From Naegleria gruberi (lineage: Eukaryota), in the NCBI GenBank assembly GCA_000004985.1, contig GG738918.1: DNA of 64,000 bases; one strand, given 5' to 3'. A model generated the notes under the pieces. It saw only the letters and a list, made by a program, of their open reading frames with translations. It was not told the origin of the DNA and did not search any database. A program made the position numbers and the translations under genes. Positions within the stretch are counted from its first letter, which is position 1, and every line of letters begins with the position of its first letter. This document shows, one piece after another, positions 7,099 to 59,338 of this stretch.

Positions 7099-7218
7099 GG
7101 CTACGGCCATATCACGATGAATGCACCTCATCCCGTCCGATTTGAGAAGTTAAGTATCGTCGAGCCACATCAGTACTGAGGTTGGAGACAACTTGGGAAC
7201 CTGTGGTGCTGTAGTCTT
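7099..7218 (+). rRNA. 5S ribosomal RNA gene
   Basis: GGCTACGGCCATATCACGATGAATGCACCTCATCCCGTCCGATTTGAGAAGTTAAGTATCGTCGAGCCACATCAGTACTGAGGTTGGAGACAACTTGGGAACCTGTGGTGCTGTAGTCT matches the conserved 5S blocks (ACGGCCATA, CATCCCGTxCGAT, AAGTACT, GGGAAC..GGTGCTGTA), is about 119 nt long, and is followed by a T-run. Confidence 0.85.
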
Positions 7219-41829: not shown

Positions 41830-43440
41830 ATGTCCATTAGTATCATTAGAAAAAAAAACGAATCTTATATCATGAACGAAACCTTTCTCTACAACAATAC
41901 AGCCTTCTCTTCATGTCCCAGTTGGTTTCCTTATCACCTCGTCGACCCATCCACTCTATCTAATAACAATACACTCGATATGGAATGTCCTGATACAATT
42001 CTCGTTCCAATAACAAGTGGAATTTTATATGGATCTTATTTAATATTATTTTTAATTTGTTTAATTTTTCTAATTTGGAAGAGGAAGGCATCTACTATCA
42101 AGGCCAGATCGCCCGTCATTTTATCTTTTGGATTAGTTGCAAATTTTACCTTAGTTTCCCTAGCATTAATTCGGTGCATTGTTGGAAAAACTGATTTTCC
42201 ATGTTTTTTATTTTCGATATTTTACTTTATTTTAGGACCGTGTTTTGTGGTGCCGTCAATTATTAGAGGAATTGAACTGATTATTCAATATAAGGTCAAT
42301 TTATTGAGAGCTAAGAGTATTTCTAGATGTAATCTTTCGAATAATTATTCGACACAGGTGCAGGATGTTAAGAGTGATGTTGTGAGTGAGAAGACTGAAA
42401 CTCAATCAGAATGTGGAACTTCATATAAGGAAACTAGATCAGTACGAGTATTGACAACTTTGAATAGAATACTGCAGAGTGCTATATTTCATTTGTGTTT
42501 TACTTTATTCTTGTTGATATTTCATTTGGGCATTTGGTTATGTTCTGGGTTGATTGAAGATGGTTTCTATTCGAAACACAGATTTTTCATGACTAATGCC
42601 AGTATTTTGAGTGTTGGAGGATGTTATTCATCTACTGGAAGTTCGATTGCCATGGCTGTGTTTGTTGGATTATATTTTATCATTGACTTGATAATTAATA
42701 TTATATGTTTGACAATTGACAATGACACATTCAACATCAAGATTGGAAATCTAGGCATGACAGTAGTAAGAATACTATGTGGTATATTTTACCTTGTATT
42801 TTCACAAGTTCCAGTTTTAAGATCTACTGGCAGAATCATTCCTTCTATTTATGTATTTATCCTAAACTGTATTGTTGAACTAATTGTCACAATTCTCATT
42901 CCATCCATTAAAGATTGTATAGATAAGATGAAATACCAATCAAAATACAACCAATCAGAAATTGAATGTGTTTTAAATGACCAAAAACTTTTCAATATTT
43001 TAATTGATTTTTCAAGAAGAAGTTACAGCCCTGAAAGTGTTTTATTTTACAAAGATATTCAACATTACAAACAATTGGTGGCAAAGCTTGAAATGATGGA
43101 AAATGGAGCTTTTCAACATGTTGAGTCAATTAAGAATTTACGTGTGAAAATTACACGTTTCGTTCAGAATATTGTTCATGTTTATTTATGTGAAGGAAGT
43201 GTTAATGAATTGAATATTCCTAATTTGAAAATGAAGAAATTGGAATTGACCAACAAGATTGCTGCATGTATAGAATTTGAATCTAATAGATTTACCAGGG
43301 ATTTATTCGATTCAATCTTGGTAGAATCAATGCTCACTCTGATGGAAGTGTATCATCGATTGAAACAACAAAACCCCACCATACGACAATTCTCCCTACA
43401 TTGGAAAAATGATCAAGACAAGCTCAACAATTCACTGTAA
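41830..43440 (+). CDS. 7-transmembrane protein with C-terminal RGS domain (paralog A)
   Basis: First ATG of the ORF at 41830; alternative start MNETF near 41872. Extracellular Cys pair (CPSWFPY...MECPDTI), seven hydrophobic helices. C-terminal KLFNILIDFSRRSYSPESVLFYKDIQHYKQL fits the RGS core (F..FL..EFSEEN..FW.A...YK). Confidence 0.65.
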   Translation: MSISIIRKKNESYIMNETFLYNNTAFSSCPSWFPYHLVDPSTLSNNNTLDMECPDTILVPITSGILYGSYLILFLICLIFLIWKRKASTIKARSPVILSFGLVANFTLVSLALIRCIVGKTDFPCFLFSIFYFILGPCFVVPSIIRGIELIIQYKVNLLRAKSISRCNLSNNYSTQVQDVKSDVVSEKTETQSECGTSYKETRSVRVLTTLNRILQSAIFHLCFTLFLLIFHLGIWLCSGLIEDGFYSKHRFFMTNASILSVGGCYSSTGSSIAMAVFVGLYFIIDLIINIICLTIDNDTFNIKIGNLGMTVVRILCGIFYLVFSQVPVLRSTGRIIPSIYVFILNCIVELIVTILIPSIKDCIDKMKYQSKYNQSEIECVLNDQKLFNILIDFSRRSYSPESVLFYKDIQHYKQLVAKLEMMENGAFQHVESIKNLRVKITRFVQNIVHVYLCEGSVNELNIPNLKMKKLELTNKIAACIEFESNRFTRDLFDSILVESMLTLMEVYHRLKQQNPTIRQFSLHWKNDQDKLNNSL

Positions 43441-51297: not shown

Positions 51298-53980
51298 TTA
51301 TTGTTTGAAATACGAACCAACGTAACCTCTTCCCGATCTTGAGGCTGGCACTCCTCTCTCTGTTGATTTAGCTCTGTGGCCAGGTGCAGTAGCTTTAGAG
51401 GAAAGAATTGATTTGGATTCATTGTTGGCAACTTGACTATTTGCAACCATTGACTTTAACTGACTTCTTTCTTCAATTAATCGTTTAAGGCTTTCTTTAC
51501 ATTGGTTATATTCTTTTTGAAGGTTATTTACATATTCAACAGCTTGTTGCAAAAGGGTTTCTTTTTCTTCTAATCTAGTTGACATCTTTCTGTTAAATTC
51601 TACTGAAATGTTGAGTTGAATTCTAGTATCTAGGAGTTTAGTCTTAGCATCCATAGCAAGAGCAATATCATGCAATTGTTTCAATACTTCTTGACTTGAT
51701 TCCATATCTTCGCTCTTCAGTAGTTCCAAAACTCTGTCTAATCCCATATGAATTTCAGAAAGTTCATTTCTTGTGGATCCTAGCTCTCTTTGCATTTCTT
51801 TTACAACCTCGTTGTGCAATGCAATTCTAGAAGAGGCTTGTTTAATCTCTTTTTCAATACCTGTTTGTGGGTTTGGTTCGATGAGGTCCTTTCTTTCCTC
51901 TAACAATAATTCAATTTCTTTCTTCATCTCTTCAATTACTGCAATGTGTTCAGATCTTTCCTTATTGATGGCATCTTGGAGCTCTTTCTTATGAGCCATG
52001 TTTGAATCGTTCAAGTTTTGTTGTGTAGCTTCTAATTTCTTTTCAAGTGCATCAATTAATTCTTGCTTCTTTGCAACTAGTTGTCTCAAGTTGGAATCGA
52101 GTTCAAGCTCCTCAATTCTTTCCTTGAATAAAGAATTTTCTTCTTTCAACACCTCAACTTCCATTTCCAAGTTTGAAATCTTTTCTTTGAGTAACCTCTC
52201 AGATCCAGCCTTGCTTAACTTGGCAGATTCCTCTTCTTCGTACTTTTTCTTAAGCTTTGCAACAAGCTCGTCAGCTTGGTCTTGCAATTGGAGATTCATA
52301 TTCTTTAATTCGTCATTTTCATTTTGAAGTAATTTTACCTCTTCTTCGTCAACCCCTGATGATGGATCTTGCAATAATTTCGCATACTTTTCTGAAACCA
52401 ATTTGTGTGCTTCTTTTTCAGTATCAAAATCCCTTGCCAAGTCTTCCGTCTTTTCCAAGAGTTGGTTGTAATCGGTGGTGAGAGTATTGAGCTCGTATTG
52501 GTACATTTCACATTGGTTTTGAATATCAGTCTTTTCCTTTTCTAACTTTTCAATCATTTCGTTAACTGGAGAGGAGTCGGCTTGAGAGGATTTAAATTCC
52601 TCTATTTGCAGATTCAAGTCGAGAATTTTACTCTCTAACTCTTGAATTTGCTCCTCCTTCTCGTTGAGTTGTTCCTTATTTACCTTAAATTCTTCCTCTA
52701 AAAATTGAGTATTCTCAGATAATTTCTTTAATCTTGACACTTCATCTTGTAATATTCTTAACTTATCATCAGTATCGATAGAAACTCTTGGTGTTCTGAC
52801 AGACTTCTTCAGTTCGTCATTTTCTGCCAATAGTGATTCTATTTGTTGCTGTTGTGAGTTAAGCAATGTGAGATACTCTTCTTCGTTAGAGTTTTCCTTG
52901 AGGTGCTCTTGAATGATTGAAACAGTCTTGTTCACATTATCTGCATTAGTCAACAGTTGACTGAGATTTGTACTATTTTCAACAATTGGTTCTCTTTCTT
53001 TTTCGGCTTCCTTTGCATAGAAAGCTGATAATTCTGCTGTTAGGTTGTGATTTTCTTCCTCAATTTGTCTCTTTTCGACTTCTCTAGCATTCAACAAGTC
53101 TTGCTTTTCAAGTAATTGTCTCTTGATTTCTGCAAATGCTTGATTAGTTTCTTCCATTTCTAGAATGGTCTTGGAGTATAAATCTCTCAATTCCTTGTTT
53201 TCTCTCAAGAGTGCAGCTTCATCCCTTCCTTCATTCTTAGGTTTTGATTTTTCATTATCATATTGAGAAAGAAGATCATCATACTTGGATCTGAGTGATG
53301 TTAATTCGTCCATTAATTCTTGTCGTTTCAAAGTTGCAATCTCTGCCTCCTTTCTGTATTTCTCCTTCTTTTCTTGCAGTACCTTGAATTCATCTTCCAT
53401 ATCTTTTACATTGAGTTGGAGTTTTTCAATTTCTGCTTGTCTTTGTTCTCTTTCCTTTTCTTGAACTGATATAATATTCCTGATTAATGTAAATTAGAAG
53501 AGTGATGATATTTACATACCTTTGATTGACGAGTTCCTTCTCAGAAATGTCCAAAACCTTTGAAATTTCAACAACTTGACCTCTCAGGGTTTCATTCTCT
53601 TCTCCTACAAGGTTCATATGCTCCTCTATGGTTTTATTCCTATCAGAGAGAATTTTAATTTCCTTATTATATTCTAACTTAATTTGATTAATATCAGAGA
53701 GTTGAGATTCATTATTAGAGAGTCTTGATATTGATTCCTTTTGTTTTTGTATTTCCTCCTTCAACTTTTTAATATCATTTTCTCTTCTAGAATTGATGGT
53801 TCTTAAGGCTTCGGCCTTTAATGATGATCAGCATTAAATTGTATTTGCCTTAATACCTACCTCCTTCTCTGCAAAAAGTACCTCTTCTACTAAGACCGAT
53901 AGATCCTTCTTCCTGCTGATTAACTCTCCTTCCAACTCTTGGATTCGGTAGTTTGCCTCTTCTAAGGATTTAACTGGCAT
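51298..53980 (-). CDS. long coiled-coil protein (~865 aa); exons 53861..53980, 53520..53815, 51298..53479
   Basis: ATG at 53980 (MPVKSLEEANYRIQELEGEL). Intron 53816..53860 (45 nt; alternative donor gives 66 nt). 40-nt GTATGT..TCAG intron 53480..53519 joins the 112-aa and 700-aa ORFs. Heptad-rich E/K/L/Q sequence throughout. Confidence 0.55.
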
Positions 53981-54095
53981 ATTATTGTTGGCGCTTTTTT
54001 TAAAATGATAAAAATTTTATGCGTAACGGTCTGTAACAACAACATGTTCGGTTCAATGAATAAGTTAGTGATAGTTGATGGTGCATTGGCTTGTC

Positions 54096-55157
54096 CTATT
54101 GATTAGTAGTATCAAAGGAGCCAGGACTAGCTAGGCAAACCAAATGCATCGAGGAGTAATCAGAAAAGAGTAATCTTCCTCCCTTATTGTCTATATGAAT
54201 ACCAATTGGATTAATTATTGAGCCATGAGTAATTTTCTTGACGAGTTCTCCTGTTGGGGTGAACACTTGAATGGCATTGGCAAAATCAGATGCATATATA
54301 TAATCATTAGAGTAGTCGATTGACAAGCCATAAATATCCTTAAATGTTCCAAACGAATTCACTACTGTGTAAGAGTCACCATCTTGTCTCAACACAAATA
54401 TCTTTCTTTTATCACAATCTCCAATAATTAAATCTCCCAAGCTATTGAATGATATTGACCAAGGACCAAGTAAATCCGAGGCAAGGCTTATGCTTCTCAA
54501 AACTGAACCAGTATTCGAATCCAAAAATTGAATTTGTTTCTCAGTCTTCTCACAAACCAATATCAGATTCTGATTGTATGGTCTATATTTTATGGTTAAT
54601 CCCTGTGGATCAGTTACTTTTCTTGTCCATTCCTTTATATCTGGAACTGCAAATTTATCTTTCGAATCACACAACAATGTAGACAATTTACATTTTACAA
54701 CTCCAAATTTTGTGTTGGTAAAATACAAGTACAATTCTCTAGAATCAATAATCTCAATGGCCATATATCTTGGTCGAACAGAATCAGAATGCCAATCAAT
54801 TACTTTCTTTTGTTTTAAGGTATTATAATCAAATACAACAATTCTATTCTTCAATTGATCACAAACCAAAATACACTGATAATCAGTTGAAATTTTAACA
54901 TCCAATGGATAGGACATGTTGTCTCCATTCAATTTTCCAACATTTGCATCAAAACGTTGATAATCAAATCCAACATATTTTGCATATTTTCTCATCTTTG
55001 ATTGAAGAAATCTAAATAATGGTCGTGTGTGCTCTAAATCCTGCTCCGAATCGTCAATTTTTGAAACGTGATCAAGAAGATACATCCGATCAGAAGTAAC
55101 AAAATCGACAAGTTGCACCACAACACATCCAAGGTTAGTTATCAAGTTTGTCGACAT
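54096..55157 (-). CDS. NHL-repeat-like beta-propeller protein
   Basis: Repeated blocks such as IIGDCDKRKIFVL, IYASDFANAIQVF, GIHIDNKGGRLLFSDYSSMHLV are typical of NHL/six-bladed propeller repeats. Confidence 0.4.
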   Translation of the reverse strand: MSTNLITNLGCVVVQLVDFVTSDRMYLLDHVSKIDDSEQDLEHTRPLFRFLQSKMRKYAKYVGFDYQRFDANVGKLNGDNMSYPLDVKISTDYQCILVCDQLKNRIVVFDYNTLKQKKVIDWHSDSVRPRYMAIEIIDSRELYLYFTNTKFGVVKCKLSTLLCDSKDKFAVPDIKEWTRKVTDPQGLTIKYRPYNQNLILVCEKTEKQIQFLDSNTGSVLRSISLASDLLGPWSISFNSLGDLIIGDCDKRKIFVLRQDGDSYTVVNSFGTFKDIYGLSIDYSNDYIYASDFANAIQVFTPTGELVKKITHGSIINPIGIHIDNKGGRLLFSDYSSMHLVCLASPGSFDTTNQ

Positions 55158-55363
55158 TTTTTTTTCTATTTTTAAATTTCATTATTTCTTAATAAAAACT
55201 GGGAGAGAACAAGGAAATTGAGAGAAAAAGGTTGAATTGAAGAAAAGTTATTCGAAAAATATAAGGAAATTATAGGACAAATAGATGGAATGGTTCGCAA
55301 TTATTTTAACTAAATATCTCTCAATCAAGGCTTATCATTTTTGGTCAACTAATATTGAAAACA

Positions 55364-56959
55364 ATGTCTCTACGACTATTCGAAAGCAAAATGATCTACC
55401 ACTCTGTAGATCAATCATCAAATTCTTCATCAAATTCAACAACGATCAATAGCTACAGTGCATGTCCCGATTGGTTTCCTTATCATTTAGCACTGAATTT
55501 AAATTCAAGTAATTCTTTGAATATGGAATGTCCTGATACTATAGTTGTTCCTATATTTGCTGGAGTTGTTTTATTCTGTTTTATTATATTCACTGTAACT
55601 GGTTTAATTTGTTTATTTTGGAAGAGAAATTCTGCCTACATTAGAGCTAGGTCATTCTCTTCATTGCTAATGACCATTTTGTCAAACACGTTGATTTATG
55701 GCATGGTTTCAATGAGATGCTTGATTGGAAAGGATGATTTTCCTTGTTTTTTAATGTCATTGTCGACCTTCCTTATTGGACCTTTATTTTCCATTCCTTC
55801 AATTGTCAGAGGAATTCGATTAATTATATTATACAGGACTACATTGGAAAGAACAAAGACTTTCAATAACACGGACACCTCTTCCATGAATAAGGTTGAG
55901 AATTTTAATTGTGGAGAAACAACAGTTACTAATTGGTCAGACGAAGTGGAAAAGAGAGATTCCAAGCAACTGAAATATCTTAATCTTGCCAATCGATTAT
56001 TACAAAGCCATTTGTTTACAATAGTATTTACAACCTTGATGCTTTTTTTGCATATTCTTATTTGGATGACTATTGGACTGATTGAGGATCAATACTATTC
56101 CTCTAATAGATTCATCACCACAAATAGTAGTATGTTTAATTATAAGGGGTGTTACTCAAGTGGACCTTCTGGAATTATAATCACTTCCTTTGTTGCGTTT
56201 TATCTGGCAATTGATTTGATTGTAATTATTGTCTTATTCTTTACAACAGAAAAAGATACATTTAGAATCAAATCAGAGTTGATCATCCTGTCAGTTTCGA
56301 GATTGTTTCTTGTTGTGATTTATTTCATAGCTACCCAAGTTCAGTTTTTCAAATATCTGGCAAGAATTATTCCAAACAATCACATTTTTCTTTCGTATGC
56401 TTTCGTTGAGATTATTATTTCAATTCTGTGGCCTGTTTTCAGAGAATCAATGCAGAAACGAGGTGAGCATAAAGTGTTGGAAAGTGAAATTGAATCCGTG
56501 CTCAACAACAAGGAAACTTTGAAGGTTTTGTTGGATTTTGCAAGGAGAAGTTTTTGTCCTGAAGGAATTCTATTTTACAAAGATGTGCAACATTACAAAA
56601 AATTGGTAATCAAGTATCAAGATCATGAATTCAATACAGCATTTCATAACACAGAAACAATCAAGAAACATCGATCAAATGTGCAAAAGTTAGTTTCGAA
56701 TATTGTGAAAAGCTACTTGGCTGAAGGAAGTGTCAATGAATTGAATTTGCCAAATGTCAAAATATTGAGGAATGACATTAATGCTAAACTAGCAGAATTG
56801 GAACATAACCATTCACCTTATCCCGTCGATTTATTTGATTCTGCTCAAGTGGAAACATTACTTACAATTCTTGGATTATACGAAAGATTGAAATATTCCA
56901 ACAAGTCAATTCTAGACTATTCTACACATTGGAGATCAAAAACAACTCCTCACATCTGA
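55364..56959 (+). CDS. 7-transmembrane protein with C-terminal RGS domain (paralog B)
   Basis: ATG at 55364. Same architecture as 41830..43440: CPDWFPYHL...MECPDTIVVPI extracellular Cys pair, seven helices, and KETLKVLLDFARRSFCPEGILFYKDVQHYKKL RGS core. Conserved C-terminal blocks LAEGSVNELNLPNVK and VDLFDS also match the paralog. Confidence 0.65.
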   Translation: MSLRLFESKMIYHSVDQSSNSSSNSTTINSYSACPDWFPYHLALNLNSSNSLNMECPDTIVVPIFAGVVLFCFIIFTVTGLICLFWKRNSAYIRARSFSSLLMTILSNTLIYGMVSMRCLIGKDDFPCFLMSLSTFLIGPLFSIPSIVRGIRLIILYRTTLERTKTFNNTDTSSMNKVENFNCGETTVTNWSDEVEKRDSKQLKYLNLANRLLQSHLFTIVFTTLMLFLHILIWMTIGLIEDQYYSSNRFITTNSSMFNYKGCYSSGPSGIIITSFVAFYLAIDLIVIIVLFFTTEKDTFRIKSELIILSVSRLFLVVIYFIATQVQFFKYLARIIPNNHIFLSYAFVEIIISILWPVFRESMQKRGEHKVLESEIESVLNNKETLKVLLDFARRSFCPEGILFYKDVQHYKKLVIKYQDHEFNTAFHNTETIKKHRSNVQKLVSNIVKSYLAEGSVNELNLPNVKILRNDINAKLAELEHNHSPYPVDLFDSAQVETLLTILGLYERLKYSNKSILDYSTHWRSKTTPHI

Positions 56960-57117
56960 TCATGATTCAAATAATTGCATCATTCTCATATGCTTCCTTT
57001 TAACTTTCAACTTTGAATTTTAACAAGTTGTTCAAAGTTCATCCTTAAACTATTTTCAAATTTCTATTTCAGAATTGAAATAGTTTACTTCAATTTCCCT
57101 CCCACCTATCTAAAAAA

Positions 57118-57417
57118 ATGGTCAACTGCCCCAAGACGATCAATGCCTATTGTGTCAAGTGTAAAACACATAAAGAACACAAAGTTTCACAATACAAGGC
57201 AGGTAAAACAAGACGTACAGCTAAAGGTCAAAGATTTTATGTCATTAAACAGAAAGGATATGGTGGACAGACAATGCCAATCTTTCACAAGAAGGCAAAA
57301 ACCACCAAAAAGATTGTTTTGAAATTGTATTGTAAAGATTGTAAAAGATGTAATCAGAGATGTTTGAAAAGATGTAAACATTTTGAGATTGGTGGAAGAA
57401 AGAAGAGTGAAATGTAA
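57118..57417 (+). CDS. divergent ribosomal protein eL42 (RPL36A/L44e)-like
   Basis: [27 protein letters not shown]...[34 protein letters not shown] parallels eL42 [30 protein letters not shown]...[34 protein letters not shown]. Both zinc-ribbon Cys pairs are kept. Only about 55-60% of positions match. Confidence 0.75.
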
Positions 57418-57708: not shown

Positions 57709-59338
57709 ATGAAGATCCCCATCGAATCAATTTGGAAACAATCTTTCAAACAGTCTCAAACTCAATTTCCCAAACTCAGTGGATTAGGTCCAGAGGTGGT
57801 AAATTTCATTCATTTTAAATTATTCGAAATAATGTTTTTTGTTATTTAAGGATGTTTGTGTTGTGGGAGGAGGTGTATTTGGCTTACAAACAGCATTGAA
57901 ATTAGTGGAGAAGGGTAAGAAGGTTGCAATTGTTGAAAGTGGACAAGTTGGTTCTGGAGTTTCGAATAACACAACAGCTAAGGTTTCTGCACTTCATTCC
58001 ATTATTTATTCGAAAATTGAAAAGAAATTTAATAGAAGTGTTTCCTCCCAATATGCCCAAATGAACATGGCAGGCGTGAGAGAAATGGGAAATACTATCA
58101 AGAAGTATGGTATCGAATGTGATTGGACTAAATCAGATTCGTATACTGTTGCCCTTTCAGATAGCGAATTGAGAATTGTTCAAGATGAAATTGACGCTGC
58201 CAATCATGCTGGTCTATACGGAGTAGATTACATCTATCCAGATCATTTAAAAGAAATACCATTTCCAAATAAGGGAGCCATTCGTCTAAAAGATCAATAT
58301 GTCTTCAACTCATTTGCCTATTGCCAAGGTTTAGCCAAAGCATTAGAAAAGAGTGGTGTCTTTATTTATGAGAATTCTCGTGTGCATGGTGTAGAATATG
58401 CCTCTCCGCACATTATTTCAACCAATGAAGGAAATGTAATGGCAGATAAAGTTGTCATTGCAACACATTTACCAATTTTAGATAGATCTGGACACTTCTC
58501 AGTGATTGAAGCACAATCTTCCTATTGTGTTGCATTCAAAATGAAAGAAGGAGTCAAAGCACCTATTGGAAACTATATAACTATTGGAAAGTGCGACGAA
58601 TTTGGAATCAAGTCAATCAGAAGTGCAGAAAATGGTAAAATCCTCATTATTGCTGGTAATAGCAACAAGTGTGGTGAATTCCATCCAACAGGAAACAGCC
58701 AAGATATTTACGATAATTTAATCGAATTTGGTTTTAATAATTTCAAAGTTGAAAAGGCAATTTGTGGTTGGTCAGCTCTTGATTACTTTACTGCAGATAC
58801 GATTCCATACTTTGGATTATTGCATCATGGTATTAATACTGTTTATACGGCAACTGGTTGTAGAAAGTGGGGTTTCTCCAATTTGAGTGCTGCCTCATTA
58901 ATCGTTTCAGATATGATATGCGAAACTCTTGATCCAGACACAACTGGCCTGTGGTCTCAAACATTCGATGCCAGAAGATGGGATCTCACCAAATCAACCC
59001 TCTCAATGGTCAAATTCCAATCCAATGTTGCCAAACATTTCGTCGCCACCAGAATTCGTGATGTTATTAAGGCAAGAACAATAGATGAATTGGGAATTGA
59101 AGATGGTGGAATTTGTAAACAAGGATTAGAAACAATAGCTGCATATAGAGATGGTAAGGGTGAATATCATCTCTTCCATCCAACATGTACTCATTTGGGA
59201 TGTCATTTGGATTATAATAATGCTGAAAAGACATTTGACTGTAGTTGTCATGGAAGTAGATTTAAGGCAACTGATGGAGAAGTAATTCATGGACCAGCTG
59301 TGAAGCCATTAACTCCATTACCTTTGAATAAATTGTAA
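57709..59338 (+). CDS. FAD-dependent oxidoreductase (DAO-like) fused to a C-terminal Rieske [2Fe-2S] domain; exons 57709..57798 and 57851..59338
   Basis: 52-nt GTAAAT..TTTAAG intron 57799..57850 supplies an ATG-initiated leader ([30 protein letters not shown]) to the body, which lacks an ATG. Dinucleotide fold [18 protein letters not shown]...VAIVE. C-terminal Rieske box CTHLGCHL...CSCHGSRF. Confidence 0.65.

Follow-up and report, generated by a model that had tools for sequence, protein, structure and literature searches.

A divergent second eL42 gene in Naegleria gruberi with replacements at ribosomal E-site residues

In eukaryotic ribosomes, the protein eL42 is the only one to form a wall of the E-site CCA pocket, the target of cycloheximide (CHX), lactimidomycin (LTM) and lissoclimides, and what the two conserved methyl-lysines of eL42 do is still poorly known. 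A 64,000-nucleotide stretch of contig GG738918.1 (assembly GCA_000004985.1) from N. gruberi (hereafter, the window) contains an open reading frame (ORF) for an eL42-like protein in which the lysine beside the CHX-site proline is replaced. The locus raises the question of whether this is a second, maintained eL42 gene or a duplicate in decay, and what its replacements could mean for the E site.

A second eL42 gene at a separate locus

The ORF runs from ATG to TAA over 99 codons with no interruption. Its product matched the Pfam family PF00935 (Ribosomal_L44) with 97.1 bits (cutoff 25) over profile positions 1-76 of 76, and a PDB sequence search matched 60 eL42/L44e sequences, the best of which was that of Arabidopsis (122 bits). 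With the AlphaFold2 model (mean pLDDT 80.7) as the Foldseek query, every PDB match listed was an eL42 chain from an 80S/60S structure (TM about 0.61-0.68, probability 1.00); as modelled, the protein keeps the eL42 fold. The zinc-cysteine columns C12, C15, C72 and C75 are 97-100% Cys in 119 homologs and all four residues are present, in agreement with the initial annotation, which had reported both Cys pairs as retained. Three further cysteines were gained (F4C, I78C and G82C; total of 8 vs 5 in the canonical protein), and the new C78 and C82 lie 3' of the second knuckle, followed by the conserved C86. The charge is little altered relative to the canonical protein (K+R 29 vs 30; pI 10.2 vs 10.45), and the A-rich start context is similar to that of the canonical gene. 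The ORF is a real protein-coding eL42 gene (hereafter, eL42L).

The identity of eL42L is 59% to human, 61% to yeast and 65% to Arabidopsis eL42, which upholds the first estimate that about 55-60% of positions are shared with the canonical sequence. Its nearest relatives are the canonical eL42 proteins of Naegleria (72% for both N. gruberi and N. fowleri) and Willaertia (70%), which have a mutual identity of 86-96%.

Table 1 Coordinates of eL42L, its parts and other genes of the window
Feature	Position	Strand	Basis
Divergent eL42 paralog (eL42L), complete single-exon CDS	57118..57417	+	ORF list, Pfam, PDB eL42 chains, AlphaFold/Foldseek
First zinc knuckle C12-x2-C15, retained	57151..57162	+	C12 invariant, C15 in 97% of 119 homologs
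Remodelled segment, codons 31-43; canonical = ASLWAQGKRRYDR	57208..57246	+	9/13 changed vs 18/84 elsewhere
M53-P54 (Met for methylated Lys; Pro retained)	57274..57279	+	Alignment: yeast K55/human K53, yeast P56
Second zinc knuckle C72-x2-C75, retained	57331..57342	+	Column statistics, 119 homologs
5S rRNA gene, full length	7099..7217	+	Rfam RF00001, 102 bits
Gene for uncharacterised protein XP_002670149.1	11037..12245	+	Exact protein match
Gene for beta-tubulin XP_002670151.1	26877..28238	+	Exact protein match
Gene for RGS-domain protein P0126 (522 aa)	41872..43437	+	Exact protein match
700-aa ORF	51298..53400	-	Orthologs at 48-49% (N. fowleri, N. lovaniensis)
Second RGS-domain gene	55355..56959	+	
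FAD/Rieske oxidoreductase gene	57709..59338	+	

The products of three other genes in the window are identical, residue for residue, to N. gruberi proteins (XP_002670149.1, the beta-tubulin XP_002670151.1 and the RGS-domain protein P0126), all of which come from one 222,118-bp contig. Because XP_002670149.1 is an uncharacterised protein, its exact match is not explained by conservation. The canonical N. gruberi eL42 (XP_002670372.1, NAEGRDRAFT_82817, 98 aa) is encoded on a different contig of 245,038 bp, and only one eL42 was found in the window by tblastn. The canonical gene is arranged tail-to-tail with a SET-domain gene both on an N. gruberi-like contig (L001) and in N. fowleri (L005); the eL42L locus is unlike this, with an RGS-domain gene on one side and an FAD/Rieske oxidoreductase gene on the other. 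Since the canonical gene occupies another scaffold, in a locus syntenic with that of N. fowleri, eL42L is a true paralog and a genuine second eL42 gene in N. gruberi. The initial annotation had called it a paralog while allowing that it might prove to be the sole eL42 gene in the genome; XP_002670372.1 settles this in favor of the paralog. At the canonical loci (L001 33-2614; L005 6001-8899; L006 6001-8143) the SET-domain gene beside eL42 encodes 742-831 aa, its product is SMYD-like in a PDB sequence search, and the two genes are not so arranged in Willaertia.

The exact eL42L sequence had no match in the protein collection (5.8 billion) or the contig collection, and no protein in the former is more than 72% identical to it; the gene is apparently unannotated. 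It is placed 159 bp downstream of one neighbour gene and 290 bp upstream of the other, and its GC content is that of its surroundings. The 700-aa ORF, for which orthologs were found in N. fowleri and N. lovaniensis, has no N. gruberi entry, and the adjacent RGS gene is absent from the protein collection. As these two neighbours are also without gene models, the annotation gap is regional and not specific to eL42L, and positions 51298-57417 of the window are apparently a run of N. gruberi genes without annotation. With eL42L, the N. gruberi annotation gains a gene that it lacked and that appears to be previously undescribed.

Several other features of the window were recorded. The two RGS-domain genes, 12 kb apart, encode paralogs (41872-43437 and 55454-56938, both on the + strand) that are 41% identical, cross the membrane several times and end in an RGS domain, and an annotation exists only for the one that encodes P0126. 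In the product of the gene just downstream of eL42L, an FAD-dependent oxidoreductase (DAO) is joined to a Rieske [2Fe-2S] domain at the C-terminus, and a single short intron apparently interrupts the gene close to the 5' end (~57800-57850). The 5S rRNA gene lies among protein-coding genes, and a search of the window for tRNA genes found none.

Replaced and retained residues around the E site

Changes in eL42L were counted against the Naegleria/Willaertia majority sequence over 97 positions, and columns were taken as conserved when 116 other eukaryotes showed conservation of at least 90%. By this count 27 of the 97 positions are changed in eL42L and none in canonical N. gruberi eL42. The changes avoid the conserved columns (5 of 55, vs 22 of 42 variable ones; p=3e-6), and one of the five, A93G, is a reversion to the eukaryotic consensus, which leaves Q36K, R40F, D42V and K53M as the real departures at conserved columns.

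The changes are clustered in residues 31-43 (Table 1; Fisher p=0.001, variability-weighted permutation p=4e-5), a segment that includes Q36K, K38Q, R40F, D42V and R43I and keeps G37, R39 and Y41. Across positions 35-45 (canonical AQGKRRYDRKQ), the residues at 36, 38, 40, 42 and 43 are replaced and those at 35, G37, R39, Y41, K44 and Q45 are kept, a pattern that looks face-specific, not random. In the alignment with the yeast protein, Q38, F40, Y41, V42, M53 and P54 of eL42L correspond to K40, R42, Y43, D44, K55 and P56, respectively. The K38Q position is encoded by CAA (57229-57231), M53 by ATG (57274-57276) and P54 by CCA (57277-57279), and the change from QTKPIF to QTMPIF noticed in the initial annotation is therefore correct. 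That annotation had also given the replaced lysine as monomethylated in yeast; it is K55 of Rpl42, which is monomethylated by Rkm4, while K40 is monomethylated by Rkm3 (PMC10265986). Accordingly, eL42L is without both positions that carry methyl-lysine in yeast; the initial annotation mentions neither the K40 position nor R40F and D42V. From the conserved E-site finger set (Q36, K38, R40, Y41, D42 and GGQTKP), it keeps Y41, GGQT and P54, and both residues flanking Y41 are lost through R40F and D42V. One idea is that D42V and K53M together could swap a salt bridge for a hydrophobic contact.

The functional setting of these residues is documented in other eukaryotes. Human eL42 K53 has been seen methylated and lines the CHX/LTM (CCA) cavity (PMC10156603), and Set13-dependent methylation of K55 in S. 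pombe is tied to stress survival and to protection against cycloheximide (PMC4023394). In yeast and Candida, P56 is 3.1 Å from CHX and P56Q confers natural resistance; Y43 stacks on a mimic of the CCA end, and ligand binding moves the backbone of K55-K60 (PMC9132455). Lissoclimides hydrogen-bond the backbone of P56 and F58 (PMC12012676). Nothing usable was found in the literature on structural contacts of yeast K40.

Of 119 close homologs, 118 have K and one has R at position 53, and all 119 have R at position 40. In the best 150 of 1.84 billion cluster representatives, 146 have K and four have R at position 53; R40 and Y41 are present in 150/150, Q36 in 149/150 and D42 in 146/150. Metagenomic eL42 sequences have K at position 53 in all 66 genuine alignments and R40 in 71 of 72 raw alignments, the single exception being an intron read-through. 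Some metagenomic matches seemed to have L, P or S at position 53 or V at position 42; these were likewise rejected as variants, as they came from tblastn read-through into introns. Neither K53M nor R40F was detected in the ~335 other eL42 sequences examined. Two unusual eL42 proteins were seen in marine transcriptome data: P0217 (AKGQRRYERKQ...QTRPIHHKK) has Q36K and K38Q as in eL42L, and P0115 reads QGERRYQRKQ.

Selection, codon usage and age

The coding sequences of eL42L and canonical N. gruberi eL42 differ at 90 nucleotides, distributed over codon positions 1/2/3 as 19/16/55. We simulated neutral evolution with AT-biased mutation to the same nucleotide divergence (5000 runs), which gave an expectation of 55.5 ± 3.2 amino-acid changes compared with the 27 observed, and 0 of 5000 simulations were as low. 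The ORF stayed intact in 0.44% of the simulations, and all four zinc cysteines were kept in 2.3%. Pairwise dN is ~0.17-0.21 and synonymous sites are saturated, although the codon-usage shift accounts for part of this high dS. The hallmarks of a pseudogene, i.e., stops or frameshifts and an even spread of substitutions, were not seen in eL42L. The intact ORF, the excess of third-position changes, the amino-acid changes at half the neutral number and the avoidance of conserved columns together indicate that eL42L has been under purifying selection for most of its history, one surface excepted. The same observations (intact ORF, 19/16/55, 27 vs 55.5 changes, p=3e-6) disfavor the decaying duplicate that the initial annotation had offered as one possibility; its other suggestion, a specialised ribosome, stands as a hypothesis.

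Codon usage was compared by direct counts in eL42L and canonical eL42. The canonical gene uses AAG 22/23, TTC 3/3, TAC 3/4, CAC 4/4 and CAA 8/8 (GC3 0.52), and eL42L uses AAG 8/22, TTT 3/3 and TAT 4/5 (GC3 0.33); the background from 20 ORFs in the window is AAG 303/812. The translational codon bias typical of ribosomal-protein genes was not found in eL42L, whose usage resembles the genome background, and it is therefore not a bulk ribosomal-protein gene. Its expression is probably low or conditional. The codons of the beta-tubulin gene in the window are background-like as well (GC3 0.27, AAG 11/23), unlike those of canonical eL42, and a codon-bias model trained on this tubulin was dropped because of its background usage.

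The signatures KAYC, HKEHKV, KQKGYGG and CKRxNQRxLKRCKHF are common to eL42L and canonical heterolobosean eL42, and eL42L has the short C-terminus of Heterolobosea, without the KGxxxxF tail. These common features indicate that eL42L arose within this lineage. Part of its divergence is lineage-wide in Heterolobosea and not particular to eL42L, a point absent from the initial annotation. The synonymous saturation between eL42L and canonical eL42, when dS is only 0.65 for the canonical pair of N. gruberi and N. fowleri, suggests that the duplication predates the split of these two species. The shared-state evidence conflicts, with A10, T17 and K46 common to eL42L and Naegleria and V13, K69 and I91 common to eL42L and Willaertia. 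In a neighbor-joining (NJ) tree eL42L pairs with the long-branch P0115, beside Naegleria and Willaertia, and this pairing is probably due to long-branch attraction.

Searches of 5.8 billion proteins, 1.84 billion cluster representatives and the metagenome contigs turned up no ortholog of eL42L. In 241 million metagenome records there were 0 matches to a degenerate DNA pattern for GGQTMP(I/V)F with the KKAKT region after it, and the related metagenome loci (75 eL42 loci) reach no more than 64% full-length identity and represent ordinary eL42 of other eukaryotes. In N. lovaniensis, the gene order at the loci around the ortholog of the 700-aa ORF is rearranged relative to N. gruberi. The N. lovaniensis locus of the FAD/Rieske homolog has a desaturase upstream, and no eL42-like sequence was found in that rearranged region. 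The RGS neighbour of eL42L shows 28% identity to N. lovaniensis, with no ortholog clear enough for synteny. Two N. lovaniensis contigs, L003 (PYSW02000046.1) and L004 (PYSW02000064.1), have the same 870-aa gene and neighbours, and L004 also has a 1412-aa non-LTR retrotransposon ORF (Exo_endo_phos, RVT_1, RNase_H).

Possible roles of eL42L and comparison with known systems

The explanation that we prefer, with confidence that is about evenly balanced, is that eL42L serves as an alternative eL42 subunit whose E-site wall is remodelled, cannot be methylated and bears less charge. An old duplicate of a Naegleria-type eL42 gene would have been kept for its zinc-ribbon fold and basic RNA-binding character, with one functional surface rewritten, namely residues 31-43 and 53, which border the 60S E-site pocket in solved ribosomes. 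That pocket accommodates the CCA end of the deacylated tRNA and is where cycloheximide and lactimidomycin bind. Produced in small amounts or only under some conditions, eL42L may substitute for canonical eL42 in a subset of 60S subunits, and the consequence could be altered binding or release of the deacyl-tRNA CCA end and/or altered affinity for E-site ligands, for which glutarimide antibiotics from soil Streptomyces are candidates. The almost entirely unchanged rRNA-binding core, together with the retained Tyr, GGQT and P54, fits continued residence in the E site. The loss of the otherwise invariant or near-invariant R40 and D42 could equally represent the loss of a ribosomal role. The lack of an ortholog in the collections searched also counts against this explanation, as cross-species conservation would be the strongest evidence of function, and so does codon usage unlike that of the canonical gene.

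The first alternative, which we consider unlikely, is that eL42L is a long-constrained duplicate now untranscribed or recently inactivated, whose intact ORF has not yet decayed. The background-like codon usage, the lack of a gene model for eL42L in the protein collection, the lack of an ortholog in the proteins, cluster representatives and metagenome contigs searched, and the replacement of the invariant R40 and the near-invariant D42, Q36 and K53 would all be expected of such a relic. However, an intact ORF is found in only 0.44% of the neutral simulations, and the 27 amino-acid changes, where ~55 are expected, avoid conserved columns (p=3e-6). The missing annotation is regional, shared with the genes at 51298-53400 and 55355-56959, and the A-rich start context is as in the canonical gene, which also argue against silence.

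A role outside the ribosome is slightly less likely again. Here eL42L would be a free, small, basic zinc-ribbon protein, acting either as a K-to-M pseudo-substrate that traps the SET-domain eL42 methyltransferase or as an RNA-binding factor. The first version has a parallel in histone H3, where K9M and K36M trap their SET methyltransferases (PMC5030085, PMC5335568), as K53M likewise puts methionine at the lysine targeted by a SET enzyme. The loss of the second methyl-lysine, the three new cysteines (C4, C78 and C82, giving 8 vs 5 in total) and the low expression suggested by codon usage are also consistent with a function of this kind. It is harder to reconcile with an rRNA-binding core that is nearly all unchanged, including a run of 12 residues, and with the retention of the CCA-mimic-stacking Tyr, GGQT and P54. 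Moreover, no Naegleria eL42 methyltransferase was identified, and the SMYD-like product of the SET gene by canonical eL42 does not point to the Rkm3/Rkm4 kind, as Rkm3 and Rkm4 belong to another SET subfamily.

The same low likelihood is given to a drug-resistance paralog, a sub-case of the preferred explanation in which ribosomes with eL42L would no longer respond to glutarimide E-site inhibitors. Such a function would suit N. gruberi as a soil bacterivore. M53 takes the place of a residue in the lining of the CHX/LTM cavity (PMC10156603) and adjoins the resistance-determining proline (PMC9132455, PMC12132315), and the methylation status of K55 modulates the cycloheximide sensitivity of S. 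pombe (PMC4023394). On the other hand, the defining change of Q56-type proteins (yeast P56 to Q) is absent from eL42L, which retains P54, and CHX is bound mainly by rRNA, without contact to the eL42 backbone (PMC9132455, PMC12012676). Less probable still is a more specific proposal in which eL42L would be an E-site variant deployed conditionally, under antibiotic, encystment or differentiation, that gives ribosomes a CCA/cycloheximide pocket without both methyl-lysines and so renders them glutarimide-refractory or alters tRNA release, or alternatively serves as a SET-enzyme trap. Either role would, to our knowledge, make eL42L the first ribosomal-protein paralog specialised by a rewritten tRNA-binding pocket together with its methylation sites.

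Foreign DNA or an assembly artefact, i.e., a contaminant or horizontally acquired eL42, is very improbable and was rejected: T7, N9, K16 and G93 match the general eukaryotic consensus and not Naegleria/Willaertia, but the gene lies 159 bp and 290 bp from its neighbour genes on a scaffold with three exact N. gruberi proteins, has the GC content of its surroundings, and carries the heterolobosean signatures and short C-terminus.

As a natural variant kept by selection, in which both lysines and two invariant neighbours were removed and the rest was kept, eL42L offers a ready set of substitutions in yeast numbering (K40Q, R42F, D44V and K55M). The pair may also represent ribosome heterogeneity that arises from sequence-divergent paralogs in a free-living protist.

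Two eL42 genes per genome are also present in yeast (RPL42A/B) and human (RPL36A/RPL36AL). Within each of those pairs the proteins show full or ~99% identity and expression is the main difference, whereas the Naegleria copies diverge by 28%, including at otherwise invariant functional residues. In Candida maltosa, the Q56-type L41 is one of two co-existing paralog types. The Q56-type L41/eL42 proteins of C. maltosa, C. albicans and Kluyveromyces lactis resemble eL42L as natural variants whose substitution falls within the CHX-pocket wall at the E site (PMC9132455, PMC12132315), but they carry P56Q in an otherwise near-canonical protein, while eL42L keeps the Pro and changes the adjoining methyl-lysine and nine of the residues 31-43. 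The histone H3 K9M, K27M and K36M variants are alike in having Met for a Lys targeted by a SET-domain methyltransferase (PMC5030085, PMC5335568); these are somatic or engineered histone mutations, and the resemblance serves as a lead only.

The closest comparison is with canonical Naegleria eL42 (XP_002670372.1; N. fowleri XP_044558760.1), which shares with eL42L the family, the fold, the length of 98-99 aa, the intronless gene, the zinc knuckles, the heterolobosean signatures, the short C-terminus and an identical 12-residue core. The two differ at 27 of 97 residues: the canonical protein keeps ASLWAQGKRRYDRKQ and QTKPIF, where eL42L has QTMPIF. The canonical gene combines strong translational codon bias with a conserved locus by a SET gene, whereas eL42L has background codon usage and occupies another locus.
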